DNA of 64,000 nucleotides from NCBI GenBank assembly GCA_964484305.1, contig CAZAEI010000001.1:26936-90935 (forward strand), in the 5' to 3' direction. The DNA comes from an uncultured archaeon. GTDB taxonomy: Archaea > Aenigmatarchaeota > Aenigmatarchaeia > QMZP01. The notes under the pieces were generated by a model. The model ran no database searches. It was given only the letters and a program-made list of their open reading frames with translations, and was not told the DNA's origin. Every line of letters starts with the position of its first letter. The first letter of the stretch is position 1. Shown one piece after another: positions 26,744 through 60,800 of the stretch. The position numbers and the translations under genes are program-made.

Positions 26744-26744
26744 G

Positions 26745-27488
26745 TCAACCTCCAAGAAATTCCTCAGTAAGCCGCTGGTAGGCATAAGCCCCCCGGCTCT
26801 CCTTGTTGTAGAGCATAATGGGCATGTTGCTTCTCGGTGCCTCGGCAAGGTCCACATTTATGGGTATCACTGTATCAAAGACTCCCCTTCCATAGACCTT
26901 CCTAATCTCCCCCTCCATCCTGGCTGTGAGGTTGTTTCTCCTGTCGTGCATGGTGAGGACGTAGCCCCTCACCGACAGCCCGGGGTTTATCTCCCTCTTC
27001 ACCATATTCACGGTGTTCATGAGCTGCTCCACACCCCTGGTGGCCAGGTGGTGGACCTGCACAGGAACGAGAACAGAGTCAGATGCAGTAAGCGCATTCA
27101 CAGTAAGCATGCCCAGGGAGGGTGGGGTGTCTATCAGAACATAGTCATATGCATGGCTCTTGAGCTTCCTCTTGAGCTTGAACTGCATGCCGGGGTCGTT
27201 CATAATCTCGACCTGGGCGGCGCTCAGTTTCTGGCTGGCTGGCACAAGGTGGAGGTTCTTTATGCTGGTTGGAACAGCCACGTCCCTTAGCCTGGTCCTG
27301 TCATCGGCCAGGAGCATACTGGAATCCCTTTTGTGCGGCCTGCCTGAGAGATACTCCGTGGTATTGGCCTGGGGATCGAGGTCAAGAACCAGAACCTTCT
27401 TGCCTCTCTGGGCAAGACTGGATGCAAGATTGACGCACAAATCTGTTTTTCCGACACCGCCCTTCTGATTTGCAACAGTGATTATCAT
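26745..27488 (-). CDS. parA: ParA/MinD-family partition ATPase
   Basis: Deviant Walker A KGGVGKT near the N-terminus (ITVANQKGGVGKTDLCVNLA). 247 aa. Confidence 0.8.
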   Translation of the reverse strand: MIITVANQKGGVGKTDLCVNLASSLAQRGKKVLVLDLDPQANTTEYLSGRPHKRDSSMLLADDRTRLRDVAVPTSIKNLHLVPASQKLSAAQVEIMNDPGMQFKLKRKLKSHAYDYVLIDTPPSLGMLTVNALTASDSVLVPVQVHHLATRGVEQLMNTVNMVKREINPGLSVRGYVLTMHDRRNNLTARMEGEIRKVYGRGVFDTVIPINVDLAEAPRSNMPIMLYNKESRGAYAYQRLTEEFLGG

Positions 27489-36669: not shown

Positions 36670-36897
36670 ATGAAGCGGCAGGATGGCGACATAAAGGGAA
36701 GAATTCTTAAGCTTATCTCTAGGAAGCCATATGGTCTGAGCATTGAGGAGATTTCGAGAGAGCTGAAAATAAACAGGGCCACTACTGTAAAATATCTTGC
36801 GTTTCTGGAAGGCCAGGGGCGGATTCTTGTGAGGGAGCTGGGCAAGGCCAAGCTACACTATCCAAGGACGAGGAGGGTTGAGGCATGGCTGCTCTAG
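36670..36897 (+). CDS. small winged-helix transcriptional regulator
   Basis: 75 aa. Its pattern (GRILKLISRKPYGLSIEEISRELKINRATTVKYLAFLEGQGRIL) is a typical ArsR/TrmB-like wHTH. Its 3' end overlaps the giant ORF's start by 13 nt. Confidence 0.6.
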   Translation: MKRQDGDIKGRILKLISRKPYGLSIEEISRELKINRATTVKYLAFLEGQGRILVRELGKAKLHYPRTRRVEAWLL

Positions 36898-39800
36898 AGC
36901 TTTCCCCCGGAACGGCAACGCCAGGCAGGAGAATGAAGAGCAGCCTCAAGAGCTCAGCCGGCATTATAGGTCTGTTATCGCTGATTCTGGCCGTGGGGTG
37001 TGTCTGGCTGCTGGTGGTCAATACGGCAGTTTCCCAGAAGGGTGTCGAGATTGTCACCGATAAGGAGGCATATAAGCAGGGGGAAGTTGTATCTGCCTTC
37101 ATATCAGGCCCTGCCAACATCAGCTTCAGCCTGGATATATTCGAGCCGGACAACCAGAGCATATTCCAGCTAAGGAACGAGAGCCTCAATGAAGAGGGTG
37201 AATTCAATCTCTACATCATGGCATATGAGAAACCGGGCATGTATGAAATCATTGTCTGGAACGAGAACCTTGCATTATCATGCACATTCGATGTGCTGAG
37301 ACCGGAGGGTATGTGGGGAGTAAATGGCTCTGGGAACCAGACCCCTGAGAATAAGACTTCAGGAGAGATTAACATCACCCTGGATATGGGTAACCAGACT
37401 GATAATGAGACCGGGCAGGAGAACCAGGGTGTTGTGGACATAATTAAACAGGTTCTTGAGATTCCGGAGAACAGGAGCCTGACTGCTGGAATTCAGGAGA
37501 CAGTTAACCTCTCTGAAACAGACTCCAATGAGAGTCTTTCTGAGTGTTTCAGGGAAAACGTAACAGGACCTGTCGATAACGCCTCCCTCGAAGTTAACCT
37601 GACCCTGGATGAGTCTGTTGTTCTGAGATCTGAGTCGCTGGAGGAGCTTGTACAGGGCGAGGCTTTTGTGGGCAGGCCTGTGAGATGGGTGAAGAAGATA
37701 ATGATGCCTGTACCAAGCAACATAAAGGTAGAGATTCCTGAACATGCATTTAATGTGAGTGTCTCTAGGGTTGCTGGGGGGATGAGGCAGAGAATTGAGG
37801 AGCAGGGACTGAAGAGAGTCCATGATACCCTAGAGCTAGACAATGCCACAGAGGTGGAGGTTGAATACTTCACAGAGCCGCCACAAGTCATGGAAGACGT
37901 CATCTCACAATACAGGAAGAGGATAACAGTCTATTCTGACATGCACTATGAAAACGTCCTGGCCTGGACAGAGATAGAGGAATTCCCTGAGGACAGTATC
38001 AGCCTTTACTGGTTCAGAGACGGGGAGAGGGAGCTTGTCGGAAGTGTCGATTACATCGACAGCAACGGAAACGGTATGATAGACAGGCTGGAATGGGTTG
38101 TTCCGCACCTGAGCAACCAGACATATGAGGTGGATATAGCCATACTCAACGTCCAGAGCTATCCTTCACTCTACGGCAACTGGACCGTGATGTTCAGCAC
38201 GACCGGGCAAGCGAACCTGACCATCACTGCTGTTAACGGGACGTCATGGAGCGATTCAGTTGGGGATAATGAGATGATGTTCCTTGAAATCAGGTGTGGT
38301 GATGAGGTTCTCGAATATGAGTGGATAGACAACGGCCCCTACAACTCATCCGTATTCATCGAGGATTATTCCTGCAATGAAACGGGCCATGAAACCAGCA
38401 TGGTCCTAGATGCAGGCAAGCACATGCTAGAGTTCAGGTTCGGAAACCTTGTTGGATATGCCTACAACTCCCTGGGAAGCCCCGTGTTCGAGACATATTC
38501 GGAGGCAGGATCGCCCGGCAATGTGTATTCGGTTGACGTCGACCCGCCATCCGGGACAGAAGGGGGTGACCTGCTTCTGGCTGTCTTCACCCACGACAGC
38601 ACATCAGGAACGCTCAGCTCTCCTGGCGACTGGACTGACCTCATGAGCAGCACCAGCACAGACGGCAGCACCTTCCTCATATCATACAAGGTAGCAGGCA
38701 GCGACGAAACCGGACCCTACACGTTCTCGAGCACTGACACCGACCAGCTTGCAGTTGGTGTGGCAAGGTTCAGCAACGTCGATCCCAGCAACCCCATAAA
38801 CTGCCAGTCCAGCGTAAGCATAGGGAACAGCAATGCCCCGCAGGCCCTGGCATGCACGACTAACATGGACGAAACCCTCGTTGTCAGGATGATGGCCGCG
38901 GACGATGACGACTACGGCACCCCGGGCAACTATCCCGGGGGGCACACGGGCGCGTTCACCGTGCAGTCGACAGGGAGTTCTGGTGAAACCCACTGCGCAA
39001 TGGCATATACGGATCAGGCCCTGGCCGGCTCGACAGGGACAGCATCATTCAGCATGAGCGCAAGAGAGCAGTGGGGAACGCTCACCGTCGCCCTGACTCC
39101 CATAGACGTAACGCCGCCGAACATAACAGACGCCCGGTTCGAGCAGACCCTGGTCATCATGAACGATGCGATCCTGTTCAACGTCAGCGTGGATGACAAC
39201 AAGTCAAGCGTGGACAAGGTCATCGCAACCTTCAGATATCCCAACGACACAAGGGTTAACGTGACCATGAATCATGACAGCGGGCCCCAGCCCCCCTGGG
39301 ATTCCACTGACATGGAAAGCAAGGAGCGTCAGGCAAAGGCAATGGATTCCACCATGGCCGAGGCCAACTACGATTTCAGCACGGGTGGGGGAACCGACAA
39401 GTTCGGCTGGAGCCACAACAACGTCGATGCAGGAGAGAGCGTGCCTCCCTTCCAGTCAATAAGCCCATGGAACTACGTCTACACCCAGATGTACAGCGAG
39501 GCAGGCTATGCCGCCCTTGGTAGCATGGACCAGAGCTTTTATGCCTGCATTGACCCAGGCTTCGGGGATTATTCTGTTCTTGCGCTCGACTTCATTGGCA
39601 TTGCAGAAGACCCCTCGGACATCAATGAAATCAACATCTCGTGGATTGGATACAGGCAGACATCGAACTACATGAAGGTGATGCTCAGAAACCAGACAGA
39701 GGGGAGCTGGGATTACACGGAATGGGATATAACCTCAACCTCCTCGCCAGGAGAGTACCATGAATGGGTTCTGAGCGGTGAGGATTTCGAGAAGTATGTC

Positions 39801-42800
39801 GTGGATGGAAGGCTTCTCATGATGCTCACTGTTGATGACGAGACCAACCAGCAGTTCTGGACGGATTTCGTGAACCTCAATGTAAGCTACGGGAAGCCCG
39901 GGGTGGATGATGACGGCAACTCCTCGTGGAGGGAATATTCGTTCACGAGCGCGGACGATTTTGACAAGATTACCGCAATCGAAATCCAGACCGAGGTGAG
40001 CTACTATGACCCGAGGGGCTCATACACCGGGGGAAGCAGCCTCCCTGACCTGGAGGTGCAGGCATGGGACGGAGACAGCTATGAGCCGGTGTTTCTCTAT
40101 GACATCAGCAGCTTGATGGGGGACGAGACCTACAACACCACAGATACCAATTTCACGGAGAACATCACGGATTCTGCCATAATGGATGCCTGGGAAACTG
40201 CAGACAACAGGAGGATAAGAATCAGGGGAGTCTACATGGACATGAACGGCGGCTACAACGACACCATGAACTGGACAGGTGTGTGGGCAACGATACACTA
40301 CGAGAACACGAGCGGCTACTTCCTCTACAACTGGGCTGATACAGCATCACTCGGGATATACAACGTCACGGACATCTATGCCAATGACACCTACAACAAC
40401 GTAAACCACACGACCTACACTGACCTATATTTCGAGGTCGTGACTGCGCCACCAATATGGAGAAACCAGGGAACTAGTGAAATCGAGGATACCATAGAAC
40501 TCGGTGATTCAATGACACTGTATGCGCAGGGAAGCGATGACTTCGGCCTCTGGGAGGCCATCCTGGCAACGGATGAGAGCGGGGAGTGGGTAAACCACTC
40601 TGGCGTCTACGGCTCGCCAATGAATCTGGGCAATGTCACTGACTGGGTCTGGTCAAACTTCACCTGGAATAACGCATCCTTCCCGACAGGAGCAACGATT
40701 TCATGGAGGATATGGTACAAGGACAACACCTCGAACTGGAACGCCACCAACATCCTGACCTTCGACATTGTTGATACGACCCCGCCTGGCTATCAGTATG
40801 ACTCGGACAACTCATCCGGCGCTGCATCAGAGAAGGATACTGTATCGGCATCGGCTTACTGGAGCGATGTGGGTGATTTGGACTATGCAATTTTGAGGAG
40901 CAATGAGAGTGGAGGCTGGGTTAACACGAGCTATTACGGGTTTGGCGAAAATCCGGAGTATTCCAACTTCAGCATTGACACTACAGGGCATCCTGATGAA
41001 ACCATATGCTGGGTTATCTGGGCCAATGACACGAGTGGGAATTTGAATGATTCGATGAGTCAGCACTGCTTTGATGTGAGGGACACTGCTCCGCCGGAAT
41101 ATGAATGTGATTCGGATGATTCGGGCGGGAGCGTGGATGAGGAAGTGAATGTAAAGGCATCTGCATACTGGGATGACAGCCTGGATCTGGATTATGCGAT
41201 ATTGAGGAGCAACGAGACAAGTAGCTGGTTGAACACGAGCGAGTATGATTTCTTTTTGACGCCTGATTATTCCAACTTCACTATCGGCACTTCAGGTCAT
41301 CCCGGGGAAACTATATGCTGGGTTATCTGGGCCAACGACACTTCGGGGAACCTGAATGATTCAATGAGTCAGCATTGCTTTGATGTCAATGATGTAAGTC
41401 CGCCTACTTATATGTATGACCAGGATGACTCTGGTGGGGCAGTGGATGACGGGGAAACCGTTGGGGTATCTGCATACTGGGATGACAACCTCGAGCTGGA
41501 AACTGCCATGTTGAGGAGCAACGAGACCGGGGGCTGGGTGAACACTAGCGGGTATGAGTTCACGGGGACCCCTCAGTATTCGAACTTCAGCATTGACAGC
41601 AGCGATCATCCTGGGGAGACAATCTGCTGGGTTATCTGGGCCAATGACACCAGCGGGAATTTGAATGAGAGCATGGAGCAGCACTGTTTCTTTGTTAATG
41701 ATATCACGCCGCCTTCCTATCTGTATGATTTGGATAATTCGAGCGGGTCGGTTGATGATGGTGAGACTGTCCAGGCTTCGGCGTATTGGGATGATGACGT
41801 TGAATTGGACAGCGCTGTGCTGAGGAGTAATGAAACGGGTAGCTGGGTTAACACGAGTTATTATGGATTTGGTTCAACGCCTGGGTATTCGAACTTCAGT
41901 ATTGACAACAGTGGTCATCCTGGGGAGACAATCTGCTGGGTTATCTGGGCCAATGATACTTCGAGTAATTTGAATGTGAGTATGGGTCAGCACTGTTTCG
42001 ATGTCAGGGATGTGACGCCGCCTACGTATCTCTATGACCAGGATGACAGCGGGGGTCTGGCGACTGAGGGTCAGGTCGTGCAGGTTTCTGCTTACTGGGA
42101 TGATGACCTTGAACTGGAGAGTGCTGTGTTGAGGAGTAATGAAACCGGGGGCTGGTTGAACACGAGCTACTATGGGTTCACTGGTAAGCCTCAGTATTCG
42201 AACTTCTCGATTGACAGCAGTGGTCATCCTGGGGAGACAATATGTTGGATCATCTGGGCCAATGATACTTCGGGTAATTTGAATGGGAGTATGGGTCAGC
42301 ATTGCTTCTACGTAAACAAGCCGCCACAGATAAATTCTGCAGAGTTCAATCAGACCACGATAAACCAGTACGAGAGCGTGCTGCTCACCGTGAACGTGAC
42401 TGACCCGGATGGTGTGAGTATGGTCATAGCAACCTTCCAGTACCCTGATTTGAGCACGGTCAATACCACCCTTAGCCAAGATGCAGGGGACAACTATACA
42501 TACGAGTGGATCGACACGTCGCTTGCAGGGAACTACAACGTCACCATAGTGTATGCGAACGATGGCTTTGATAGCTGGAATTCCACCATATACACAACTC
42601 TGGGATTCGATGTAGTTGGTGATGCACCACCCACTTCCACGCTTAATGTGCCTGATAATGGGAATATAACCAGGACCACCACAACGGTTGTGTTCAACTG
42701 CAGCGGATACGATGAAGTCAACCTGATAAACGTGACGCTGTGGGGAGACTGGCTCGGCTGGCACGCAAACGAGACCAACACCTCAGGCTATGATGATGCT

Positions 42801-45800
42801 GACTACATGTTCACCAAGACCATACCCGATGGCGACTATGTGTGGAACTGCTATGTTTGTGACTCTTTGGACCAGTGCTCTTTCGCTCCTGAGAACTACA
42901 CCTTCAGTGTGAACAGGTATCCCTACTATGAGAACGATGTTGACAACTCGAGTGGGGCAGTGGATGACGGAGAGGCTGTGGGGGCTTCGGCGTACTGGTA
43001 TGACCCCTACGGTGACCTGGATACCGCTATATTGAGGAGTAATGAAACGGGTTCGTGGGTTAACAGCAGCTATTACGGGTTCAGTTCGACGCCTGAGTAT
43101 TCCAACTTCACCATTGACACCACAGGGAATCCGAATGAAACCATCTGCTGGGTCATCTGGGTCAATGACACGGTCGGTAACCTGAACTCGAGCATGGGTC
43201 AGCACTGCTTCTTTGTTAACGATGTGAATTCACCGCAGTTCAGCAGTGCACAGACCAACCACACCTCTGTCACAAAGGGGGCCGTCCTGCTGGAGATGAC
43301 GGTTAATGATGATGTGAGTGTTAACAGCGTGTTGTTCGATATCAATTCAACGAATTACAGCTATTCCGGGGTGAGTGGTGATGTCTATGAGTATTACTTT
43401 GACTGCCAGGTGTTCGGCTCAGGAACGTGGCACTGGAACGCCACTTGGGCTATTGACGGCTCCGGTAACCAGAACTACACCATGGGTGAGGGCCTTCCCC
43501 AGTGGTTTGAATGCGATGCCGATGCCCCATCAGTAGGTGGGGAACAGGTCGATGTGGGCGCCAGCAACAGCGTGGTAAGGCTCAACCTGACTGTCACTGA
43601 CAACTTCGGAGTAGACACCGTGGTTTTTGAATTGGATGAGACAGGCGCTGGGTTAGGAGTGAACAACTACACCCAGACTGGCAGTTCCGGGGATGAGTGG
43701 TATCTTGTTTATGACTGCACCTCTACGGGAACGGTCTACTGGAACGGGGTTTATGCCAATGACACTGCAGGGAATTATGACTCAAACCTGAGCGTGGGGC
43801 TTTCCTTCTACTGCGACCTGGATGAGCCCGGGTGGTCCGGGCAGGGCCAGAACAGCAGCAACCCGGTTGCAGGGGAGGATGTCAGCGTGCATGCGTACTG
43901 GACAGATAACTATCTGCTGGGAAGCGCCCTGCTCGAGACCAACAGGAGCGGCTCACGGGTGAACGAGTCGTATCTGAGTCTGAGCGGGGCTGGGGACTGG
44001 AGCAACTTCACCGTGGACACCACAGGGCATGACGGGAAAACCGTTGCATGGAGAATATATGCAAACGACACCTTCGGGAACCTTAATGCCACGGATGACA
44101 TGAGCTTTGATGTCAGGCACGCATCGACATCGGGGATTCTCTACCAGAACGAGTCCGCGGACGTGACCGGGATAACCCAGACCGATTACAAGCATTACAA
44201 CATCACGCTGGAATTCAACAACACCGGGAACGAGTTTGCATATTCAGCCAGCCTCTCCCTAAGCCTGCCAGGCGGCTGGAGCGCCTACCCGGCCGTGCAC
44301 GAGTGCAGCGATGTCGGGAGCGGCCAGGCCTGCGGGCAGGATTTCAACGTGACCGTGCCTGCAGGAACAGGGCCTGGTGATTATTACGTGTATGGCTATG
44401 CCAACTGGAGCAACCCTGACTCCTCCAAAGGCTCGGCAGAGAACGATACTGTTTTCTCGGTTGAGTCCAACCCGGTTCTTGAGGTTCCAGAGACCGGGCT
44501 GTCAGACACTGTCAGTCACAACAACGAGGAGGTTGTTGGCTCGTTCACTGCCAACTCCACAGGCAATGACAACGTTGTTGGTATAGAGTTCAACTGCACT
44601 GGCGGGAACCTGAGCTATGACTGGGTTGAGTATGACCCCGTTAACATAACCAATCTCGCTGCTGGATATGAGCAGTCTGTAGAGGTAAGCGTGACCGTGC
44701 CTGCAGGCCAGGCTCCCGGGGAATACGGCTGCGTGATAAACGTATCTTCAGCGAACGGCGGACAGGACAGCCTGAACCTCAACACAACAGTTCCCGTTGA
44801 CGACTCGTGGACGAGGAGTCCGGCAACGTGCTCGAAGTCTGCTGCAGTAAATTCGACAGGAACGGTCTGCCAGGTCGTGATACAAAATACGGGCAACGTA
44901 CTGCTCAACGTCACGATAGAGCCTGTTGGCATGACCAACTACACCAATGCAAGCAAGAGTATGTTCCTCGTGGATGCACAGGGTTCGGACTCATTCAACA
45001 TAAACTACAACACCACCGGAGGGGTTGTAGGGTATGAGAACGTGACCACGTACAACATATCCGTCAACGGGACGCCCTACTACCAGCTGACCGAGGTTAC
45101 CCTGATTATAACCCAGGTCCCCTGGTGGAACTCGGAGTGGACCCACAGGAAGCAGATTCTCATATCCGAAAGCATGAACGTCGAAAGGGTGAATGACGTC
45201 ATAATGGTCAACGTGACAGACCTTGACGGGAAAATCAGCAGCTGCGAGAACGAGATAAGGGTTATCTCGATAGAGACCGGTGAGAACGTGGAGGTAACGA
45301 GGCAGATACTTGACGGTGATGATTCGAGCTGGTGTTATGTTGTCTTCCTGGGCAACGTCTCGGCCAGCGCGAGTGATGAGAAGCAATATTATGTTTATTA
45401 TAATAACTCCCAGGCCAGCGCACCCAGCTATGCAGACCCAATGGATTCTTACACTGACTCCGGCGGTTGGTATATGTTCAGCGGCCTGATAGAGTGGAAC
45501 TATTCCTGGTCAGGCGGCAGGGGCGGCGGGCCGATGAGGTCAAGGATAACCACCCCTGAGGGGCAGGAGGTGCTGAGTTCAACCACCTATGACGATGACA
45601 GCTTCCAGAACACGGACACCTTCATATCATTCACCACGGATGTGGACGGGCCCGTGTTCAAGCAGTTCACCCTCACGTCAAGCCTGAGGGGCACCCAGGT
45701 CATGAAGGTTTACGCATACCAGAACTGGTATGAGATAAACAACACGTACACATGCGCATCGGGCTGCGGTGATTACCACATTGTCGGCATAGGTGGGACA

Positions 45801-48800
45801 GACACCACGGGGAGGGGCTGGTATGATTTCTCTTCAACGACCGGGACTGGAGAGCAGACGGCAACGAACTTCTTCTTCGTGGATGACGGGGCGAACAACT
45901 GGGGTGTCGGCGTTGCAGTGAGCGGTGTGCCTGACCAGCCGTTTGACTCGGGAACTGCAAGCGACCTGGATTTCCACACATCAGTGGACGGCTGGTACAT
46001 AAACAACGACCCCTACACCGGCGGCTATCCCTTCTGGATTTTCACCACGGATTACGGAACCACGGGCTCGAACACCACGGCTACCAAGGTGAAGAACCCG
46101 CCCTCTGCATCAGAGGGTGGTGAGGAAAGGCTCATCATCCCTGAGATAGAATCGATAAGGGTGTACAACGTGACCGGACTGGGTGACACTCATTCAGGAG
46201 GGAGTCTGGTGGTGTCTGGCCTGAACGAGAGCTACAACGTAACCCTCAACGAGACCGGGCACGGCTATTACAGGGTCGAGATAAACGTGAGCGTGAGCGC
46301 TGACTGGAACATATCGGTCCTGACAAGGGCATACCATGAGGGCCTTGATTCGGGCTGGCAGGTGGCTTCGAATGACATATGGTACAGCATGGGCGCAGGG
46401 GACTACACCGGCGGCACGCTCTCCGCAGGGAAGGTTACCTGGGACACGGTCCAGGACGGCTCTGTTGAGGCAGGCGGGCACGTCACCTTCTATTACGTGC
46501 TCAACGCGAGCGGTGTGCCTGGCCAGGCAGGGGTACACTTCGTCATAAACGAGACCAATTATGAGAGGGCGAACGGCCTCTCAGTGGATGGGGATTGCTC
46601 TACCTTCATGGTGGAAGACGTGAACTCGCCCCTGTGGAGATACCAGGGCTCGAACGCGACCGTACTGGAGGCAGGCAGCTCGATACTCCTCTATGCCCAG
46701 GCCAGGGACTATGTGGGTCTGGACTACGCTGTCCTGGTAACAAACGAGAGCGGGTCTTGGGTCAACCAATCCGGTGTATACGACTCGCCCATGGATATGC
46801 AGGATGCAGTTGCCTGGGTCTGGTCGAACTTCACCTGGCAGAACTCCTCTGTTGCCGACGGCACCGTGGTGGGCTGGAAGGTGTGGTATAATGATACATC
46901 AGGGAACCTGAACTCAACAGACGAGTCAACCTTCCTGGTAATCTCCCCGCCGAAGTGGTCTGATAACAGGACCTATCCTTTGTCGCCGGCAACCTATGCC
47001 CCCGGACAGGCCTACATGTTCAACATCACCTGGACTGGATACGGAATTGATGACGTAACATTTGAATTCGATGGGGTGAACTATACCTACAAGTCCGGGC
47101 AGGTATCCAAGGATGGGGATGAGTACTACATAACCCTTACTGACTTATCTGTCGGTTCCTACAGCTACAGGTGGTATGCCAACAACACTGCAGCACAGTG
47201 GAACTCCACTGACCAGTCAACCTATTATGTTGAGAAGTCCTCCACATCGATTGGCCTGCTCCTGAACGGGAGCAGTGACAGGACATACCATTACGGAGAG
47301 ACAGCAAACCTCACGGCTGACCTGGACGTCAGCGGCAAGGACATCGATATATGGACGAATCTCTCCGGAAGCTATGAACTCTGGGACTCCGGGCCCGGGC
47401 CACTGGAGAACATCACCGTACTGGGATATGGGCTGGGCTACTACAACGTCACGGCCAACTTCTCCGGTGACGACAACTACACGGCATCGTATGATTCGCA
47501 CACCCTTACCCTGATTGGATGGTCCAGCATCTCCTGGGATTCGCCTGACGGGGGGACAGGCACCCCTGGTGACGTGATTGAACTGGGCTGCCTGGTCAGT
47601 GATGCTAACACGTCATCCCTCATAGGGAACTACCCTGTCACGTTCTACAACGTCACGGGTTCTGGTGAGAGTGAGATAGGGGTTAACTACACCAACTCCT
47701 CTGGCCAGGCTGTCTGGTACTGGGACACATCCGGGCTTCCTGCCGGGGCCTACTATCCGAAGTGTAACATAACGGACAACGAGACCCTGCTCTACAACGA
47801 GACTGACGAGAACGAGGGCAACACGACCTATTACCTGGTTACCCTAGGAACTCCGGTTCTGACCGTGGAGACCCCTGACCTTCTCATAGGTAAGGGCAAC
47901 CCAGGAGACAATGCAACCGTGAGCTGCAGCATCGACTGCTCCGGCGGGAGCTGCCTGGGACTGCAGCTCGGCCTGCAGTACGAGAACGCATCCGGATGGC
48001 ACTGGATAGGCAATGACGGCAACCTGGAGATAAACCACACCAACCCAAAGGACTGTGGGGACGCCCCCTCGTGCTCGGATACCTGGGACATATTCGGCAA
48101 GGTCAATGGAAGCTTTAACCTGAGGTGCAATGCCACTGCCTCGACACCCCTGGAGAGCAACATCAATTCAGGCAGCAACGTCCTGGAGATATACACTGGT
48201 TCCCTGTCCATAGAGTCATGGACGCCTGCGAGCAGTCCATATGACCTCTCCATCTATGACGCCTTTGATATAGACCCTGTGATAAGGTGCACTGCACCCG
48301 AGGGGACAAGGGCAGGATGTGGTGATGTCTTGATGTATGCGAGGACCAACCAGACCGGCTCCCCTGCCACTGACCCCATATCTGGCTCGACTGACATCAG
48401 ACTCGAGAGCGGAAGTGTGGAGCAGTACTACGGCTCGCAATATCCAGGAAGTGATGGGGGATACTACGAGATTCCATTCTCTGCAATAACGGTCAACATG
48501 ACTGTGGGGGGCGATGCAGGGGGCACGGCAAGGCTTTATGACGTCAAGGTAAACTCAAGTGATGCTGACGTTGACGAGGTTGACCCGTCCGACAGGGTGG
48601 CCGTAGGCCATACAGGCCAGATAACCATTGAGATGTACGATGTATCCAGCACCATTGACGAGGGCTTTGACATCATATACAACATATCATGTTCTGGCTA
48701 CAGGTGCCTGGACGTGGAGCTCTGGGCCAGGTATAACGCCACAGGTTCTGATGCAGACACCCTAGCTCCTGTATCACCGAGCCCGGCTGTGTTCAACGTC

Positions 48801-51800
48801 TCCCAGCAGCCAGTAAGGACCCTGAGCATGAGTGCTGGGGAGAGCCAGATTGCGATGACCATATCCGCAGGTGCGGGCTCCAGCCCTGGGGAGTGGAAGA
48901 TTGATTTGTTCGGGAACTCGAGTTATGCAGAAACTGCTGATGAGGACCCCACAGACGGTGTACTAAAGCTCACATCTGTTTCCATAACTGCAGACCTGGC
49001 TTCCCTTTCACCATCCAACATAATGGAGGGTGGGAACTCTGCTGCAAGCGGCTACTGTGAATGCGCTGGCGCGTGCACGAACACCGTGATTTACGTGCAG
49101 TTCAGCGACGGGGACTGGAAGAACATACCCACGGACATCAGTGAGGAGTTGAGCTCCAACGTGACAAGCTACTTCATAGGTTCGCTGAGCGGGACGTCTG
49201 GAACATATGAGTTCAATCTCACTGGACTGGTTGGTGGGAACTACTCTGTCAGGGTGAGGTGTGATTCAACCGATGATGCTGACAACTCATACAACATCAC
49301 CCTTGAGTTGGATGACTATCCAGACTTCTCAGGGTTTGCAGTGAACTCATCTCTGCTCTACAGTGGTCAGGCTGCCAGGTTCAACGTCTCCATACAGGAT
49401 GAAGCTGGGGTGACGTATGCAAACTTCACCATAAACGGCGTGACGTATGACGCAGTCCAGGGCTCTGGAAACGAGTGGTACTATGACTGGGTGTGCTCTG
49501 CATCTGATGCTGACGTGGACTGGACATATGCAGGGGCGAATGACACAGAAGGATACTGGAACGATACATCAGTTATATCCGTATCAACAGAGTGTGATGC
49601 CCAGGCGCCAACAATAACCGGTCCTGTCATCAACGACAGCTCTACAGTAAACCTGGGTACCTGGGTCAGGGTCAATGCTTCCATATCAGACCCAGAGGGC
49701 CACCTGAACACCGTACTGCTCATGGTTGACAGGCCAACATCCTCTGACTACAACATCACGCCAAACGTCAACGGTGATGAATACTACTATGAGTTCGAGT
49801 TGGATGAGACCGGGCAGTGGAGGTTTGAGTTCTTTGCAAACGACACTGGAAACCAGGTCTCCACTGACTATGCAGAGGATGGTCTGAGCAACGAGTACAT
49901 AGATGTCCAGGATATCGAGAGTCCTGTCATCTCTGGCGAGCAGGTCAACACGAGTGTGAGCAACGGGTGGGTTAGGCTCAACGTGACTGCCACTGACAAC
50001 GTCGGGGTAGACACCGTGGTCTTTGAGCTGGACGAAACAGGTGTTGGGTTGGGAGTGAACAACTACACACAGACCGGCAGCTCAGGGGATGAGTGGTACT
50101 ATGAATACCAGTGCACTGCCTCTGGGACGGCCTACTGGAACGAGGTCTATGCCAATGACTCTGCAGGGAATTATGACTCAAACATGAGCGTAGGGCTTTC
50201 CTTCTATTGCGACATGGATGAACCAGAGTGGTCCGGGCAGGGCCAGAACGAGAGCAACCCGGTTTCAGGGGATGCCGTGAGTGTCTACTCCTACTGGACA
50301 GATAACAATGAGCTTGAGAGCGCAGTGCTCAAGACAAATAGTAGCGGTTCCTGGGTGAACGAGTCGTATCTGGGTTTGAGCGGGGCTTCGGGCTGGAGCA
50401 ACTTTACCGTGGACGCCACAGGGCACGACAGCGAGACCATTGCATGGAGGATATACGTTAATGACACTGCAGGCAACCTCAACGTGACTGCTGATATGAG
50501 CTTCAATGTCAGGTATGCCTCTACCTCAGGCATCCTGTACCAGAATGAGAGCGTTGACGTGAGCGGAATAACCCAGTCTGCTTCAATGGACTACAACATC
50601 ACTCTGGAGTTCAACAACACAGGCAACGAGGTTGCATACTCAACAGAGCTCTCCCTGAGCCTGCCATCGGGCTGGAGCGCATACCCCTCGTTGTACGCGT
50701 GCGGTGATGTGGAGAGCGGCCAGTCATGTAAGCAGGATTTCAACGTCACAGTGCCTGCTGGCACGTCTCCTGGTGATTACTACGTGTATGGATATGCAAA
50801 TTGGACCAATCCTGACTCATCGCTGGGTTCAGCAGAGAACCAGACCACCTTCTCGGTGGAGTCCAGCCCGATTCTCGATGTTCCGGAGACCGGTCTGGCA
50901 GACACAGTGAGCCACGGCACTGAAGAGACTGTGGGTACCTTTACGGCAAACTCCACAGGTAACGATGACGTTACTGGGATAGAATTCAACTGCACGGACG
51001 GGAACCTGAGCTATGAGTGGGTAGAGTATGAGCCAGTGAACATAACTACGCTTGGTGCTGGCTCTGAGCAGGCTGTACAGGTTAACGTGACTGTGCCTGC
51101 AGGCCAGGTTCCAGGAGAATACAGTTGTGTGATAAACGTGTCTTCAGCCAACGGGGGACAGGACGGCCTGAACCTCAACGTGACCGTGCCTGTTGATGAC
51201 TCATGGACCAGGAGTCCGGCAACCTGCTCCAAATCAGTGACCGTGAACGAAACCGGTTTGGTCTGCCAGGTCGTGACAGAGAATACGGGCAACGTGCTGC
51301 TCAACGCCACGATAGAGCCAGTGGGCATGACCAACTACACCAATGCCAGCGAGACAATGCTCCTGATTGGTGCACAGGGCTCGGATTCCTTCAACATCAA
51401 CTACAACACCACCGGAGGGTTTGTTGGATACGAGAACGTGACTACGTACAATATATCTGTCAACGGGACGCCATACTACCAGACAGTTGAGGTGACGCTG
51501 AGGATTGTGAAACCCATATGGTGGAATTCATACTGGAATTACAAGCAGAGGCTGAACATCACGAACAGTAATGACACCGACACCCTGATAGAGAATTATA
51601 CAATCAATCTGGCCCTGGACACGGCATCGCTTGTCTCGCTGGGCAAGCTGATGGTAAACGGCTCTGACCTTAGGATAGTCTACTACAATGGCTCTGAATA
51701 CACCGAGCTGGACAGGATAAACACCACTCCATTCAACACGGCAAGCACCACCATACTGTTCAGGCTGCAGAAGAACGTATCTGCTGGTGATTCTGATACA

Positions 51801-54800
51801 AGCTACTATGTATACTACGGAAACCCAGCTGCCTCTGATCCACCAACAGAGGAGAGCAACATATACGCCCTCTGGAGGGATTTCGACAGCGATACTGTTG
51901 ACCAGCAGCCTCCTGGGTGGAGCCTGGCAGAAGACGTGACAGCCCTGAACGTGAGGGACGAGGGATGCTACAGCCCGTCGCAAAGCCTTGATATCGATGC
52001 ATCTGCAAACACATATGCCTGGATTACTTCTCCCGGTCTTTACGGGAATGACTACATAATGGAGGCAAGGGTGAACTACACAGCATCCAACACAAGGCAC
52101 GGCATTGCTGGAAGGGCTTCATCATCAGGAACATATGCCCTGATTCTCTACACGGGTGGTGTGCCTGCACCAGGACTGAGGCTTTCGAGAATAAGCTACA
52201 CGGGCGGCGAGAACGTCATTGTAACCGACACCACTACGAGTCCCTATGACAACATCTGGTATAACGTGAAGTTGCTCATGTATGGAACGAGTATAAAGGG
52301 TAAGTTCTGGAACGTGACAGAATCCGAGCCATCGGGGTGGCAGGTTGATGAGACGGACAGCAACATAGCATCGGGTAGCGTCGGTGTGTACTCGTACTCG
52401 AACGATGACGGATACATAGATGACCTCTCTGTAAGGTACTATCTCGAGCCAGAGCCCACAGCATCCTTCCTGGGTGAGGAAAGGCTCATCATCCCTGAGA
52501 TAGAATCGATAAGGGTGTACAACGTGACCGGACTGGGTGACACTCATTCAGGAGGGAGTCTGGTGGTGTCTGGCCTGAACGAGAGCTACAACGTAACCCT
52601 CAACGAGACCGGGCACGGCTATTATAGGATCGAGATAAACATTAGCGTAAGTGCTGACTGGAACCTGTCTGTCCTGACAAAGGCATATCATGAGGGCCTT
52701 GATTCGGGCTGGGAAGTGGACACTACCAATGACGTCTGGTACAGCATGGGCGCAGGAGACTACACAGGCGGCACGCTCTCTGCTGGGAAGGTTACCTGGG
52801 ACACGGTCCAGGATGGGTCTGTTGATGCAGGGGGTCACGTCACCTTCTATTACGTGCTCAATGCCACTGGAGTGCCTGGGGAAGAGGGGGTTCACTTCGT
52901 TATCAATGAGGCCAACTACGAGAGGGCCAATGGGCTCTCTGTGGATGATGACTACTCCACAATCAGGGTCGATGACGTTACTCCACCAACTTATCTGTAT
53001 GATGGTGACAACTCAAGCGGTTCTGTCAATGATGGCGAGACCGTGGAGGCGTCTGCGTACTGGGACGATGGGGTTGGGCTTGATTATGCAACATTGAGTA
53101 GTAATGAGACAGGGAGTTGGGTTAACAGCAGTTATTATGATTTCGTTGGGACACCCGGTTATTCGAACTTCTCAATTGATAGCAGTGGTCATCCTGGGGA
53201 GACCATATGCTGGGTCATCTGGGCTAATGACACCAGCGGGAATTTGAATGGGAGTATGGGTCAGCACTGCTTTGATGTGAATGATGTCACACCGCCCTAT
53301 TACCAGTATGACCAGGATGACTTGAGCGGGGCAGTTGATGACGGTGAGACTGTTGATGTGTCTGCCTATTGGGATGATGCAACATCTTCACTGTCAACTG
53401 CTGTGATGAGGAGCAACGAAACGGGTAGCTGGGTGAACACCAGTTATTTCCAGTTCACGGGTAAGCCTCAGTACTCAAACTTCTCGGTTGACAGTTCAGG
53501 GCATCCTGGAGAGACCATATGTTGGGTCATCTGGGCTAATGACACATCAGGTAATTTGAATGGGTGTATGGGTCAGCACTGTTTTGATGTTAGTGATGTG
53601 ACACCGCCTTACTATATATATGACCAGGATGACTCTAGTGGGGTAGTGGATGATGGAGATACTGTGCAGGTTTCTGCTTACTGGGATGATGCTATCTCTT
53701 CTCTGGACAGCGCTGTGTTGAGGAGTAATGAGACAGGGAGTTGGGTTAACAGCAGTTATTATGATTTCGTTGGGACACCCGGTTATTCGAACTTCTCAAT
53801 TGATAGCAGTGGTCATCCTGGGGAGACCATATGCTGGGTCATCTGGGCTAATGACACCAGCGGGAATTTGAATGGGAGTATGGGTCAGCACTGCTTTGAT
53901 GTGAATGATGTCACGCCACCTAGTTATCTGTATGACCAGGATAATTCGAGTGGAGCAGTTGATGATGGGGGGACTGTTGAAGTGTCTGCTTACTGGAACG
54001 ATGATGTTGAATTGGAGAGTGCAGTATTGAGGAGCAATGAAACAGGTAGTTGGGTTAACACGAGCTATTATGACTTCGTTGGAACACCTGAGTATTCGAA
54101 CTTCTCGATTGACACTACAGGGCATCCGAACGAGACAATATGCTGGGTTATATGGGCTAATGATACTTCAGGTAACCTGAATTCGAGTATGGGGCAGCAT
54201 TGCTTTGACGTCAGGGATGATACTCCCCCACAGTTCATGGATGCACAAACAAACTACACGAGTATAACAAACCAGGCATTGGAGCTCAACATCACGGTCA
54301 CTGATGACATTGGAGTTAGTGGTGTGTGGTTTGACATAAACGGTACGAACTACAGCTATGACAGCAGCTCTGGTGATTACTACTACTATTACTTCGACTG
54401 CCAGGTGTTCGGTTCAGGGATGTGGCACTGGAACGCTACATGGACAGATGATGTTTCAGGCAACCTTAACTACACCATGGGTGAGGGTCTGCCGCAGTGG
54501 TTCGAATGCGACGTGGACTACCCATACTACAGCCAGGATGTTGACAACAGTTCTGGATCCGTTCAAATCGGAGAGATAGTCAACATGAGCGCATACTGGC
54601 AGGATGGGTATGGCAGCCTTGACACGGCATTGTTGAGAACCAACCAGACAGGGAGCTGGACAGATGAGCAGGATTACTCCTTTGCTTCAACTCCTGAGCA
54701 GGTAATGTTCATGTTTGACACAACAGGACACCTTGATGAGACCATATGCTGGGTCATATGGTCTAACGATACTGTTGGGAACCTCAACAACTCAATGGGA

Positions 54801-57800
54801 CAGCACTGCTTTGACGTGGGGGACTCTATACCGCCCACATATATGTATGACCAGGATAACAGCAGCGGGCTTTTAACAGAGGGTTATTCCGTGGAGGCCT
54901 CTGCATACTGGAACGACAACCTGGAGCTTGAAACTGCGGTGCTGAGGAGTAATGAAACAGGGAGTTGGGTTAACAGCAGCTACTATGATTTCGTTGGTAC
55001 ACCAGGTTATTCGAACTTCTCAGTTGATAGCACAGAGCATGCTGGTCAGACAGTCTGTTGGGTTATCTGGGCGAATGATACCTCAGGGAACTTGAATTCG
55101 AGTATGGGACAGCACTGCTTTGATGTAAACAAGCCGCCACAGATAAATTCTGCAGAGTTCAACCAGACTACGATAAACCAATATGAGAGCGTTCTGCTCA
55201 CAGTGAACGTGACTGATTCGGACGGGGTTAGTATGGTTATAGCGACGTTCCAGTATCCTGATTTGGGCACATTAAATGTCACGCTAAGTCATGATGTTGG
55301 GGATAACTACACCTATGAATGGACAGACACCTCAGTGGCAGGCACTTACAACGTCACTGTTGTATATGCGAATGATACGTTTGATCGCTGGAATTCCAGC
55401 ATATATACATCATTGAGTTTCGAAGTAGTTGGTGATGCACCGCCCACATCCACACTGAATGCGCCTGCGAATGGGAACATCACAAGGACCACCACAACGG
55501 TTGTGTTCAACTGCAGCGGTTATGATGAGGTGGATTTGGTAAATGTATCGCTATATGGTAACTGGTCGGGTGGATGGCACGAGAACGAGACCAACACCTC
55601 GGGTTATGATGCCTCTGACTACATGTTCACCAAGACAATTCCGGATGGTGACTATGTCTGGAACTGCTACGTATGTGATTCCATAGGACAGTGCTCGTTC
55701 GCTCCAGAGAACTACACCTTCAGTGTGAACAGGTATCCTTACTATGAGAACGATGCTGATAACTCGAGCGGAGCTGTGAATGATGGAGAGACCGTGGAGG
55801 CGTCTGCATATTGGGATGACCCACATGGGGACCTGGATACTGCTATATTGAGGAGCAATGAAACAGGCTCGTGGGTGAACACCAGCTACTATGGGTTTGG
55901 TTCGACTCCAGAGTATTCGAACTTCACGATTGATACCACGGGGCACCCGAACGAGACAATATGCTGGGTCATCTGGGTGAATGACACTATTGGGAACTTC
56001 AACAGCTCAATGGGTCAGCATTGCTTTGACGTGAGCGATGTGAGCCCGCCTTACTATGTGTATGATGAAGATAATAGCAGCGGGGCAGTAGATGATGGAG
56101 AGACCGTGGAGGCGTCTGCCTACTGGGATGATGACGTTGAGTTGGAGAGCGCTGTGTTGAGGAGCAATGAGACAGGTTCGTGGGTGAACAGCAGCTACTT
56201 CGATTTCACGGGTAAGCCTCAGTACTCAAACTTCTCGGTTGACAGTTCAGGGCATCCTGGAGAGACCATATGTTGGGTCATCTGGGCTAATGACACATCG
56301 GGGAATTTGAATGGTTCGATGGAACAGCACTGTTTTGATGTAGGGGATGTTAGTCCGCCTAGTTATCTGTATGACCAGGACAACTCGAGCGGGGCAGTAG
56401 ATGATGGAGAGACCGTGGAGGCGTCTGCCTACTGGGATGATGACGTTGAGTTGGAGAGCGCTGTGTTGAGGAGCAATGAAACAGGGAGTTGGGTTAATAC
56501 AAGCTACTATGGATTTGGTTCAACGCCCGATTATTCCAACTTTAGCATTGACAGCACAGACCACCCTGGGGAGACTATATGCTGGGTTATCTGGGCGAAT
56601 GATACATCGGGGAATTTGAATAGCAGCATAGGCCAGCACTGCTTCGATGTTAGTGATGTTACGCCGCCTGCATATCTATATGACCAGGATGATTCTGGTG
56701 GGGCAGTGGATGATGGAGATACTATGCAGGTTTCTGCCTACTGGAATGATGACCTTGAGTTGGACAGCGCTGTGTTGAGGAGCAATGAGACAGGTTCATG
56801 GGTGAACAGCAGCTACTTCCAGTTCGCTGGTGCTCCGCAGTATTCGAACTTCTCAGTTGATAGCACAGGGCATTTTGGTGAAACTGTTTGTTGGGTTATA
56901 TGGGCGAATGATACATCGGGGAATTTGAATAGCAGCATGGGTCAGCACTGCTTTGACGTTGTTGATAACACACCACCGGTTTACCAGTACGATGGTGATG
57001 ACAGTTCGGGGGAGATTGAATCAGGCGATGCTGTGGAGGTATCTGCCTACTGGAATGATACAGCATCCGGCCTTGGCACGGCCGCGTTGAGAACGAACGA
57101 GAGCGGCTCATGGGCAGCCAGGGATTATCACCCGTTCTCGGCAGCCCCCGAATACTCCAACTTTACCATGCAGATAACAGACCATGTTGATGAAACCATA
57201 TGCTGGGTTATATGGGCTAATGACACGGTTGGAAACCTTAATGATTCAATGGGCCAGCACTGCTTTGACGTTGCTGACACAACGCCCCCGGTGTGGTCCC
57301 AGAACTCGACCGACTCGACTGTGGCTGATTCCCTTGTTGAGCACAGGCTGTACTGGGAGGATGCCGGCGGCCTGGCAGGATATATATTCTCCTTTGACAA
57401 CTGCATAGGCAGCTTTGTTAATGACAGCTGGATTCCGATGACAGGGCCTGCAAACTGGAGCAATGTGACAAAATACATCAGTGATACAGTGGGGTGCACG
57501 GTAAGGTGGAGGGTCTATGCAAATGATACCAAGGGCCAGTGGAACGATACGGGCATCATAAGTTATCAGACAACAGAGGACAATCCCCCCTACTGGTATG
57601 ACAATTCAACGAATTCGTCCCTGGCTGGAAGGGCTATACAGCACAGCGTGAAGTGGACCGAGGACAGCGAGCTGTCGGGGTATATATTCTCCTGGCACAA
57701 CGGGGCGAACTGGACTCTGGAGAGTGATAAGGAAGTTGGGACAGGGACGATTCAGATAAGGTTAAATGTAACAGAGAATGTCGATGTTCCAACCAGCTGC

Positions 57801-60800
57801 AGGGACGGGAGCTATGGCAGCGGCCAGAACTATGAGCTCTACAGTAGATGGACCACCCCGGATTCCGGTGAGGTCACGGTCTCGGGCCTGAGATTCTATG
57901 ATTCAGAGGCAAGCCTGTCGAGTAGCGAGAGCATAGAGGTTGCGCTTTACAATGAAAGCGGGGACAGAATAACTGAAATCGTTATCATAACAGGAACCGG
58001 TTCACAGGAATGGCTGACAGGGAAGCTGTCAACCACGGTGAATATCACGCTTGGTGAGAACTACACCATAGGTGTGGGGCCATCAGGCGGTTCAAGCTAT
58101 GCCATTGGCAGGGACACGAGTGCTGACTGCTCCAACTATCCCCCGACAGGGGCAGGAAGCCTGTACGAATCAGCGAGCGGTGGACTGAATGACCAGGTTC
58201 CCGGGAGCCAGCACTCCGATAAATTCAGTTTCTGGGGCATAGAGTACGAGGTCCCGGAAAAGGATGGAAACACGACATATTCCACATACCAGGATGTGGA
58301 TTCGGACCATGAAAGGGTGCTTAACATAACGGTTAAAATCGAGATTGACTCCTACAACCCGGAGGCCTCTGTAAACCAGTCAACAGGCGACCCTGACCTG
58401 GAAGTGGAGTTCTATGATGGAACCGGTTTCGTGAGCATAGGGGTGCTGAACCTGAACGAGAGCTATACAGGAGACACCCTGAACACCACCAATGCCAACT
58501 TCACCCTGACCACGACCGATTCCTCAATCATGGAGGCTTGGGAAACCGCGGATAACCAGGACCTCAGGATAAGGGGTATCTACATGGATTCTGTGAATTC
58601 CACACTTTACGATGAGATTAATTACACGAACGTGTGGGTCACCATCTACCATGAGCAGGAATTCCTTAACGATTCCTGGATGGAGATGACAGGGCAGGTC
58701 AACTGGAGCAATGTAACAAAGGTCGTGAACTCAACAGTCGGGGCAACGATTAAGTGGATTGTGTATGCCAACGACACCACTGACAACTGGAATGCTACGG
58801 ATGTCTTTGTTTATATAACGATAGAGGATACGGAGCCGCCCTACTACCTCTATGACCAGGACAACTCCTCGGGTTCGGTGGTGGTTGGGGACACCGTGCT
58901 GGCGTCCACCCTCTGGAACGACTCTATAAATGAGAATTCCCTCTCAACAGCCATATTGAGGACCAATAAAACAGGCTCCTTCGTCAATGAATCCTATTAC
59001 TCGTTCTCCACAAAGCCCGAATATTCGAACTTCAGCATTAACAGCACTGGGCATTTTGGCGAGACCATATGCTGGGTTATATGGGCAAATGACACTTCAG
59101 GGAATTTGAATTCAAGTATGGTTGAGCGCTGCTTTAATGTCGTTGACATCGAGGCCCCTGCATGGTACCAGAACCAGACCAGCATCGTATCAGTATACTC
59201 CCCGTCACAGCTGTCACTCTTCAACATAACCTGGGTTGATGAGGCAACATCGGTCCACACGGTTTATATAGAGGGGAATTGGTCTGGCTCTCCAGGGAAC
59301 TACACCATGTACATGGAGGGGGACGGGGTATACCAGCACAATCTTACCCTGCATGCTGGCAGCTTCTACTGGAGGTCCTGGGCGAACGACTCCGCAGGCA
59401 ACCTCAATGTCTCGGACACCTGGGAGTTCACTGTGTCCAAGGCAGACATCCTGGTCTGGTTGTTCCTGAACGGCACAGAAGGTGACTTCGGCATGACGTA
59501 CGGGGAGACATCCAATGCCAGCACCTATTCCTCGGCAGGCACGGTGCAGCTCTGGAGGAACGGGTCCCAGGTCGGGAACCCCGAGGTTGAGGTCTTGGGT
59601 GCTGGCTACTGGGAGTATCATGCCAATGCGACAGGTGACCAGAATTATACTGATAACTCCAGCGGGGTGACGTACTACCTGACAGTGGACCAGGCTGCCT
59701 CGTCAGCGGAACTCTATGTGAACGGCTCCAGGGACAACATGGCCCAGGGATATGGGGACAGTGTGAACGTGTCGGGTTACTGCGATTACGGCTCTGTGAG
59801 CCTGTGGAGGAATGAAAGCAGTGTGGCTAACCCGTACAGGGATGTGCTGGGCGCGGGATACTGGAACTTCACCGCGTACTGCTCAGGGGACGGCAACCAC
59901 ACCGGGAGCACGGAGCAGTGGTTCGTGACCGTGAACAGGGCATCCATGCCATTGTATCTGTATATAAACGACTCTGCAGACAACGTGACGCTCACCTATG
60001 GGAACACAACCAATGTGAGCGGGTACAAGGAATATGTAGAGGGTTCACTGGAGCTCCTGCTCAATGGCTCGGCAGGGAGCAATCCTGATATAGACAACCT
60101 GGGTACGGGTTACTGGAACTACACCCTGGTTTTTGACAAGACCCAGAACTACACTGCGAATTCAACAAGCCTGTTCATAACAATGAAGAAGAGGGCATCC
60201 CAAGCAACGCTCACGCTCCTGCCTGAGTCCCCTGTGGCTTATGACACATCCACCACTGCAACATGTGAAGTCACCAACCCCGAGGCAGCAGGCATTCTGT
60301 GGAGGAACGGCACGGACGTGAGCGGGGAGAATGGAACTGCAGTTACACTTGGAGCAGGATACTGGGAGTATGTTTGCAATGTCTCAGAGACAGGGAACTA
60401 CACATCTGCAGAGGACAGCTCGGGCTATACAGTGAACACGGCATCCTGCGGGATAGAACTCTACCTGAATTCAGGGGCTGTTAATCAGGACAACACAATA
60501 ATCTACGGGACCGATGCAAACGCAACAGCATACATCAATTTCACGCAATCTGTCTGGCATCTCGAGAGGAACGGAAGTGTCGTGGATTCAGGAACAGGCA
60601 GCATGCTTCAGGAGATAGAAGGTCTCGGGACCGGCTACTGGAACTACACCGCATTCTGGGACGGTAACGAGAACTGCACTAGCTGCCTTGAGATGTCCTT
60701 CCTCACCGTCCAGAAGGCGGTTTCGGGTACAGAGGTATACATAAACGGGTCAAGGGACAACCTCACCCAGACCTATGGGGAGAGTGTCAATGTTACTGCT

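Follow-up and report, generated by a model that had tools for sequence, protein, structure and literature searches.

Old domain-bounded duplications and short exact repeats in a probable giant surface protein gene of a DPANN archaeon

How did a gene of 27 kb or more come to carry kilobase-scale copies of its own parts, and what does it mean that one pair of these copies opens with a run of identical nucleotides? These questions are raised by a giant open reading frame (ORF) in a stretch of 64,000 nucleotides (nt) from an uncultured archaeon of the Aenigmatarchaeota (contig CAZAEI010000001.1 of assembly GCA_964484305.1, positions 26,936 to 90,935, forward strand), which is referred to here as the window. 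The ORF (36885..63998, + strand) exceeds 9,039 codons, is open past the window end, and is also seen in six independent contigs. An earlier inspection of the letters, the original prediction, had proposed that large segments recur within the gene and that one near-identical pair reflects either recombination or gene conversion within the gene, or a local mis-assembly. The answer that we regard as likely is that old duplications bounded by domains, replacement of a head domain and short-tract gene conversion explain the giant gene. Its product would be a giant, membrane-anchored, probably heavily N-glycosylated extracellular protein composed almost entirely of β-sandwich domains.

Block map and age of the duplications

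The giant protein was mapped using a hidden Markov model (HMM) of its 103-amino acid (aa) repeat together with BLASTP of overlapping 200-aa chunks. The features are as follows.

40785..42326, + strand: immunoglobulin (Ig)-like array 1, five 103-aa (309-nt) units R1-R5, from the repeat HMM
42327..42920, + strand: U1, 198 aa, KPPQINSAEFNQ...FNCSGYDEV, partner U1' at 55140-55736
42921..43232, + strand: Ig-like unit R6, partner R13 at 55737-56048 (86% aa identity)
43233..43514, + strand: U2, 94 aa, ...FDCQVFGSGTWHWNATW, partner U2' at 54228-54521
43515..45122, + strand: block C copy 1, 536 aa, partner at 49911-51518
45123..45425, + strand: DUF2341-like domain of cassette 1, WWNSEWTHRK..., 32% aa identity to its counterpart in copy 2
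45426..46118, + strand: domain X1 of cassette 1, about 230 aa, no likeness to X2
46119..46270, + strand: D-head tract copy 1, 152 nt, identical to 52473-52624
46271..46628, + strand: rest of block D copy 1, aligned with 52625-52985
46947..49703, + strand: spacer of about 2.8 kb between the two units, no block-level duplicate by chunked BLASTP
49911..51518, + strand: block C copy 2, partner of copy 1
51519..51842, + strand: DUF2341 domain of cassette 2, sub-threshold PF10102 match (20.1-20.3 bits)
51843..52472, + strand: domain X2 of cassette 2, about 205 aa, family profile matching CBM66
52473..52985, + strand: block D copy 2, first 152 nt (52473-52624) equal to copy 1
52986..54227, + strand: Ig-like array 2, R7-R10, holding a 191-nt exact repeat
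54228..57287, + strand: U2' (54228-54521), R11-R12, U1' (55140-55736) and Ig-like array 3, R13-R17 (55737-57287)

Block C contains one diverged Ig-like domain and two NPCBM_assoc (PF10633) β-sandwich domains. The tail of block D has no family match, and in copy 1 block D is followed by a diverged Ig-like domain. The first ~600 nt of the spacer have a weak, domain-level likeness (30-39% aa identity) to distant parts of the giant gene. Altogether 18 clear 103-aa repeat units were counted in the giant protein. The peptide motifs quoted in the original prediction each occur exactly twice, where it had placed them.

Self-BLASTN recovered four of the five proposed block pairs, at 72-88% DNA identity, which bears out duplication on the kilobase scale. 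Positions 43563-45086 and 49959-51482, within block C, are 80.0% identical over 1,524 nt without a gap. The pair 41868-43227 and 54681-56043 is 77.7% identical, and the pair 42942-43516 and 53940-54511 is 72.4% identical. The estimate of roughly 80% identity outside the last pair is only partly right. It fails for the segment at 45.12-46.10 kb, which is not a duplicate of 51.52-52.45 kb; the DNA identity of these two segments in a global alignment is at chance level.

The blocks had also been described as recurring in the same order. Copy 1 reads Ig5–U1–Ig–U2–C–cassette–D while copy 2 reads C'–cassette'–D'–Ig4–U2'–Ig2–U1'–Ig5. Orientation is the same in both, and the shared order is limited to C–cassette–D. 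In copy 2 U1 and U2 are swapped and placed on the opposite side of the C–cassette–D unit, which requires several separate domain-bounded events rather than one segmental duplication. A single collinear segmental duplication was therefore rejected, given the differing block order and the non-homologous X domains at the center. The self-comparison that had been recommended as a check of block structure does find repeated blocks, but they are not simply collinear.

Synonymous divergence (dS) and the ratio of non-synonymous to synonymous divergence (dN/dS) were calculated from codon alignments by the method of Nei and Gojobori, a comparison of block pairs that the original prediction had called for. 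U1 and U1' are 85% identical in aa sequence (dS 1.09, dN/dS 0.075), U2 and U2' are 71% identical (dS 1.38, dN/dS 0.17), the two copies of block C are 78% identical (80% in nt; dS 0.86, dN/dS 0.16), and the D tails are 83% identical (dS 0.83-0.96, dN/dS 0.07-0.10). Block pairs thus have dS values of 0.8-1.4, and the single unit pair R6/R13 approaches saturation (dS 2.0). Across the U1, U2, C, D tail and Ig pairs dN/dS is 0.04-0.17. High dS with low dN/dS identifies the duplicates as old, nearly saturated at silent sites, with both copies under purifying selection. Such constraint on both copies is a further sign that the ORF is a genuine gene.

These values are consistent with growth of the gene by several old internal duplications with domain boundaries, which would have produced the 103-aa Ig-like arrays, the paired single blocks U1 and U2, and one 3.4-kb C–[DUF2341–X]–D module. 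Purifying selection would then keep both copies of each block.

A second and different repeat family lies in the 3' part of the gene (59700-63100, aa ~7490-8940). Its units are 35-59% identical and have no Pfam match.

The DUF2341–X cassettes

The segment at chance-level identity had been read as a duplicated block of DUF2341-like plus LamG-like domains. The first ~100 aa of the two cassettes, the DUF2341-like parts, are indeed homologous (32% aa identity, hhalign probability 99%, E 3e-18), and a WWNxxW motif (WWNS.W) opens both. Copy 2 scores 20.1-20.3 bits (E 8e-4) against the PF10102 (DUF2341) gathering threshold of 23.4, while copy 1 has no match. PF10102 is matched by 4/6 members of the cassette 2 alignment (best 3.2e-8), and the cassette 2 homologues P0042-P0046 pass the cut-off.

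The likeness ends with the DUF2341-like part. X1 (231 aa) and X2 (210 aa) are unrelated, with BLASTP E>1 for their 221- and 200-aa cores and a profile-profile hhalign probability of 0.1%. Each cassette has its own homologue in the databases, P0040 for cassette 1 (45% identity over aa 2707-3080) and P0041 for cassette 2 (31% over aa 4863-5200). The X2 family is widespread, with 519 homologues at E≤1e-3 among 1.84 billion representative sequences. A profile built from 19 X2 homologues matches the CBM66 domain of Bacillus subtilis levanase SacC (PDB 4AZZ, 4B1L and 4B1M) with E 1e-6 over ~105 residues, about half of X2. CBM66 is a ConA-like β-jelly-roll lectin module. The profile has one match in the giant protein, X2 itself, and none to X1, P0040 or P0001, a homologue described below.

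Other searches with these domains were negative. Pfam Laminin_G matched neither X1 nor X2, the LamG and DUF1080 families of Pfam did not match X2, and no Pfam family was found in ten short X2 homologues. Sequence and profile searches of the PDB matched X1 to no ConA-like lectin family of known structure; such searches with the cassettes and block D were empty or marginal, the deeper X2 profile being the sole success. The label LamG-like is reasonable for X2 only, if taken broadly to mean a ConA-like lectin fold. X2 is best described as a putative sugar-binding domain of the CBM66/ConA-like kind.

A homologous protein of another organism is represented by the fragment P0001, which has the order C–DUF2341–X–D. 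Its DUF2341 domain is ~60% identical to that of cassette 1 and 26% identical to that of cassette 2, and its X domain is of a third kind, unlike X1 and X2. Each of the three C–DUF2341–X–D modules known so far thus has a different X domain. A homologue search with the whole C–X–D module returned 12 matches, and the giant gene itself was not among them.

The simplest reading of these comparisons is that C…D forms a conserved scaffold into which a DUF2341–X head is slotted. C and D would be paralogous between the two copies of the 3.4-kb module, with the DUF2341–X head most likely replaced by recombination with another module containing DUF2341. Cassette 2 would then be the incoming one, acquired after the duplication, a direction of replacement that we infer.

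Could strong diversifying selection instead have driven two true duplicates apart past recognition? Homology persists in the DUF2341-like parts, the cassettes are flanked by scaffold blocks of equal age, and the head domains of surface proteins often evolve fast. Divergence from a common X domain is difficult to reconcile with the profiles, however. X2 belongs to a family of 519 homologues with a CBM66 match, while X1 matches neither that profile nor X2 and has its own homologue, P0040, at 45% identity. A split after duplication predicts the reverse of what is seen in P0001, whose DUF2341 domain is far closer to cassette 1 than to cassette 2. We consider divergence past recognition improbable and prefer replacement of the head.

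Exact tracts, probable gene conversion and population haplotypes

The last block pair (46119-46621 and 52473-52978) is 88.1% identical over 506 nt and had been described as a near-identical pair of ~480 bp opening with about 170 identical nt. The exact run is 152 nt (46119-46270 and 52473-52624, offset 6354, in frame). In the next 95 nt identity is 86% and in the last 256 nt 82%, against a background of 82-87%. With this drop the term near-identical fits the first third of the pair alone.

Identity in the D-head tract includes silent sites. Third codon positions are identical at 50/50 codons in the tract, compared with 51/85 in the D tail and 323/508 in block C. When the columns of the D alignment were permuted 0/20,000 permutations reached a run of 152 nt, the largest being 103. 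The left edge of the tract is the exact start of homology, adjoining the unrelated X domains, and a heteroduplex would have to stop there.

Counting the D-head tract, the giant gene has at least six exact tracts of 80-191 nt. The five others are 191, 95, 95, 92 and 80 nt long; they lie in units that are otherwise 70-85% identical, and all third positions inside them are identical. They are listed here together with one further exact tract.

53100-53290 = 53724-53914, + strand: 191-nt exact repeat, the longest in the gene, R7/R9
53454-53548 = 56205-56299, + strand: 95-nt exact tract
56079-56170 = 56388-56479, + strand: 92-nt exact tract
59839-59933 = 60862-60956, + strand: 95-nt exact tract in the 3' repeat family
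61113-61192 = 62958-63037, + strand: 80-nt exact tract in the 3' repeat family
41606-41647 = 41915-41956, + strand: further exact tract

Such a mosaic is what short-tract gene conversion between paralogous repeats characteristically leaves behind. The suggestion of conversion within the gene is well supported for the D-head tract, where 0 differences in 152 nt, silent sites included, stand beside flanking D and C sequence with dS 0.8-1.0 (0.83-0.96 in the D tail), and we infer the mechanism from this pattern. Recombination between in-frame repeats would keep copying tracts of 80-190 nt, the D-head tract being one such event, and the left end of that tract would have been set by the onset of homology beside the non-homologous X domains.

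Identity could in principle also be maintained by selection on the nucleotide sequence itself, if the tract served as an internal RNA structure, gave rise to an antisense transcript, or held a signal for regulation or recoding. The start of the tract coincides exactly with a domain boundary, and the tract spans the stretch of D that is conserved best, where the P0001 protein is conserved too. The predicted RNA folding energy of the tract is ordinary, however (z = -0.62), and no Rfam family was found in the window. In a promoter and terminator scan, promoter-like sites did not exceed the shuffled expectation and none lies within the tract. The five other exact tracts fall at different positions of different domains, a scatter that a single sequence element cannot explain. 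A population haplotype described below differs from the window at two sites within the tract, and one of the changes is non-synonymous. Nucleotide-level selection appears highly improbable, and conversion is the better explanation.

A diversity-generating retroelement (DGR) with its template and variable repeats was also considered, and was rejected on the mismatches beside the tract, which are not adenine-specific. Of the 13 mismatches in 46119-46365, five are G>A, three C>T and two G>T, while A>C, A>G and C>G occur once each. DPANN archaea are known to have DGRs, and a repeat pair of ~150 nt in a surface protein gene resembles one. Here both repeats are in frame within one ORF and no reverse transcriptase was found among the neighbors scanned.

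A more serious concern is assembly. A short-read assembler may collapse or chimerise near-identical repeat paths, leaving a false exact identity or a false second copy, and the window is a metagenome assembly of a repeat-rich gene. The contigs of other assemblies break inside repeats. Mapped by collinearity, the ends lie at 53290, on the final base of the 191-nt repeat, at 56272 and 46185, 68 and 67 nt into exact tracts, and at 41036, inside an Ig unit. In the window, the allele at 46205/46213 in the first D copy (D1) is the state of its paralogue.

Evidence from other samples stands against an artefact. Six contigs, from five Joint Genome Institute (JGI) samples (3300031355, 3300031356, 3300031365, 3300031551 and 3300031654) and one Sequence Read Archive (SRA) run (SRR9707468), carry the neighboring gene and are ≥99.96% identical to the window. 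Three contigs from other samples reproduce the junction of X1 with D1. A contig from another sample ends exactly at the repeat boundary at 53290, which implies that it is collinear with the window and, if so, spans both D copies at the same spacing. Within the window, the upstream flanks X1 and X2 are unrelated, the downstream sequences differ, and both copies are in the frame of the 27-kb ORF. Collapse of an assembly bubble removes a few single-nucleotide polymorphisms (SNPs) but cannot make sequences of ~17% divergence identical; a patch of very low divergence would remain. Given the non-homologous upstream flanks, the divergent downstream sequence and the contigs from other samples, the proposal that one locus was assembled twice is unlikely. 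We hold an artefact in general to be unlikely as well, though somewhat less so than divergence of the cassettes past recognition, and retain conversion between two real copies.

A second, co-occurring haplotype, B, is shared by contigs from three other samples and is defined by few differences from the window, which come in close pairs. At 41651 and 41654 haplotype B carries its own alleles, which match unit R1, while the window alleles match R7/R9. At 46205 and 46213, inside the D1 tract, the window allele matches the second D copy (D2), and one of the two changes is V→G. SNPs inside the tract indicate that D1 is a locus with its own variation. The polymorphism between haplotypes looks templated by paralogues. 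For the C/G state of haplotype B at 46205/46213 the window contains no donor; a third D or cassette copy past 64000 could be its source.

Two contigs from different samples (L001 and L002) share an end at 45818, a position within X1 at which the window shows no repeat, not even a shared 16-mer. The shared end could come about if part of the gene past 64000, such as a third D or cassette copy, repeats this sequence, or if strains branch here. A metagenome contig collection that does not include the independent contigs yielded nothing for a unique 600-aa piece or for a 47-nt exact tract pattern.

Several points weigh against our account of duplication, head replacement and conversion. An adjacent SNP pair (25913/25914) occurs in the non-repeated TIM gene, making SNP clustering alone weak evidence. 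The collinearity of the two long contigs rests on their lengths and end positions. The data are assemblies, in which bubble-popping could erase a few true differences within tracts, and 152 exact nt may overstate the identity. The D2 state of the window at 46205/46213 is also what consensus cross-talk between the copies would give. A scan of genome contigs found only Ig-domain matches, in two short contigs of a Nanohalarchaeota metagenome-assembled genome, and no orthologous giant gene. Finally, AlphaFold2 models of both cassettes, built from shallow alignments, had pLDDT values of 41.7 and 39.4, too poor for a fold search.

A bolder interpretation is that the gene is a self-templated variation system, in which the C…D slot exchanges heads and short-tract conversion makes new alleles in the population. 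This is a tentative idea that we think more likely to be wrong than right. If true, a DPANN symbiont would tune its recognition of hosts or glycans without dedicated machinery.

The giant gene, its neighbors and comparison with known systems

The frame of the giant gene is open from 36882 and has no stop up to the window end. The first ATG is at 36885 and the second at 36933. From the second ATG the N-terminus has a hydrophobic stretch, MKSSLKSSAGIIGLLSLILAVGCVWLLVV, read straight off the translation, which is a putative signal or anchor. The protein is enriched in S, T, G, N and D, and contains 477 N-x-S/T sequons versus the 146 expected from its composition (a 3.3-fold excess). A gene for the oligosaccharyltransferase AglB/STT3 lies at 6644-9085, 28 kb upstream of the giant ORF, and together with the sequon excess suggests very dense N-glycosylation. 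In Pfam searches NPCBM_assoc β-sandwich domains alone were recognized with confidence, above the cut-off; a Big_7 match was weak (18.8 bits versus a cut-off of 24.1).

The neighbors are ordinary archaeal chromosomal genes, including HMG-CoA reductase, STT3/AglB, class V fructose-1,6-bisphosphate (FBP) aldolase/phosphatase, phosphoenolpyruvate (PEP) synthase and genes of glycogen metabolism. The nearest named relatives of the PEP synthase are from Aenigmatarchaeota (70%), followed by other DPANN including nanohaloarchaea (~61%). Taken together, the gene content, the sequons and these relatives suggest that the giant gene is best read as encoding a giant protein, probably glycosylated, on the surface of a DPANN archaeon.

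Other features of the window were noted. A 75-aa ORF with a weak HTH_11 match lies directly upstream at 36670-36897 (+ strand), was predicted in every independent contig and extends 13 nt into the giant gene as counted from its first ATG. This ORF may encode a regulator; alternatively, the ATG at 36933 may be where the giant gene truly starts. A 1,111-aa ORF at 10382-13717 (+ strand) has no Pfam match at E≤1e-5, and an identical protein occurs on seven contigs of public assemblies. The PEP synthase (22133-24427) lacks the N-terminal DUF2582 (PF10771) fusion carried by its nanohaloarchaeal homologues; a separate 81-aa DUF2582 gene lies beside parA at ~26540-26785, ~2 kb from the PEP synthase. 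A related species, on contigs carrying P0198-P0201, has a PEP synthase that is 85-91% identical. Rfam and tRNA scans of the whole window found no family and no tRNA.

Genome-reduced DPANN are believed to rely chiefly on giant surface proteins for attaching to their hosts and exploiting them, and little is known of how these proteins diversify. The gene provides a quantified example, with old module duplications that have been maintained, differing head domains of which one is a CBM66-like putative sugar binder, and what appears to be ongoing conversion visible as polymorphism. There is also a practical warning, in that short-read assembly of genes of this kind breaks, predictably, where exact repeats of 80-190 nt lie. 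Internal duplication with short-tract conversion is the usual evolution of repeat-rich giant genes and not a new kind of system. What is modestly new is a scaffold whose head domains can be exchanged, along with the trace that conversion has left in the population.

Repeat-rich bacterial adhesins include Bap/Esp/Rib/alpha-C, SasG/Aap, SiiE, LapA and the ice-binding MpIBP; halomucin of Haloquadratum walsbyi is also repeat-rich. Duplication within the gene and homogenization of ~100-aa β-sandwich repeats are well known in giant bacterial adhesins. The gene described here likewise has arrays of ~100-aa β-sandwich domains in a huge ORF, recombination in frame that would homogenize or renumber the repeats, and interspersed lectin-like domains. 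Adhesin repeats are often nearly identical over their full length, whereas here the units are 55-88% identical in aa sequence with short exact patches, and the gene is archaeal. This pattern suggests that conversion is short-tract and infrequent relative to divergence.

The closest likeness is to the giant membrane-anchored extracellular proteins of nanohaloarchaea termed SPEARE. As excerpts of PMC10266531 describe them, these proteins (SVXNc_0300, 9,409 aa, and BNXNv_0298, 8,880 aa) have a Sec signal, tandem Ig-like domains and a presumed role in contact with the host cell. Their hallmark is a C-terminal VirB4/TraG-like ATPase domain together with a downstream VirB4-like ATPase gene, and related strains differ by the presence or absence of a 529-aa tandem Ig-like stretch (PMC10266531). 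No ATPase domain was found in the available 9,039 aa, and the gene continues past 64000, where an ATPase end of the SPEARE type would lie. The host differs in being a sediment DPANN nearer Aenigmatarchaeota rather than a halophile, and the C–DUF2341–X–D module is not among the features reported for SPEARE proteins in those excerpts of PMC10266531. The likenesses, which are of architecture, are a DPANN host, a single gene of ~27-28 kb or longer whose product exceeds 5,000 aa, a presumed role in host-cell contact and, putatively, an N-terminal signal or anchor followed by tandem Ig-like β-sandwich domains. The 529-aa strain difference is the same kind of repeat-mediated change as that proposed here. 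By this analogy the giant gene would be the same kind of object as the nanohaloarchaeal giant surface proteins, in a different DPANN lineage.

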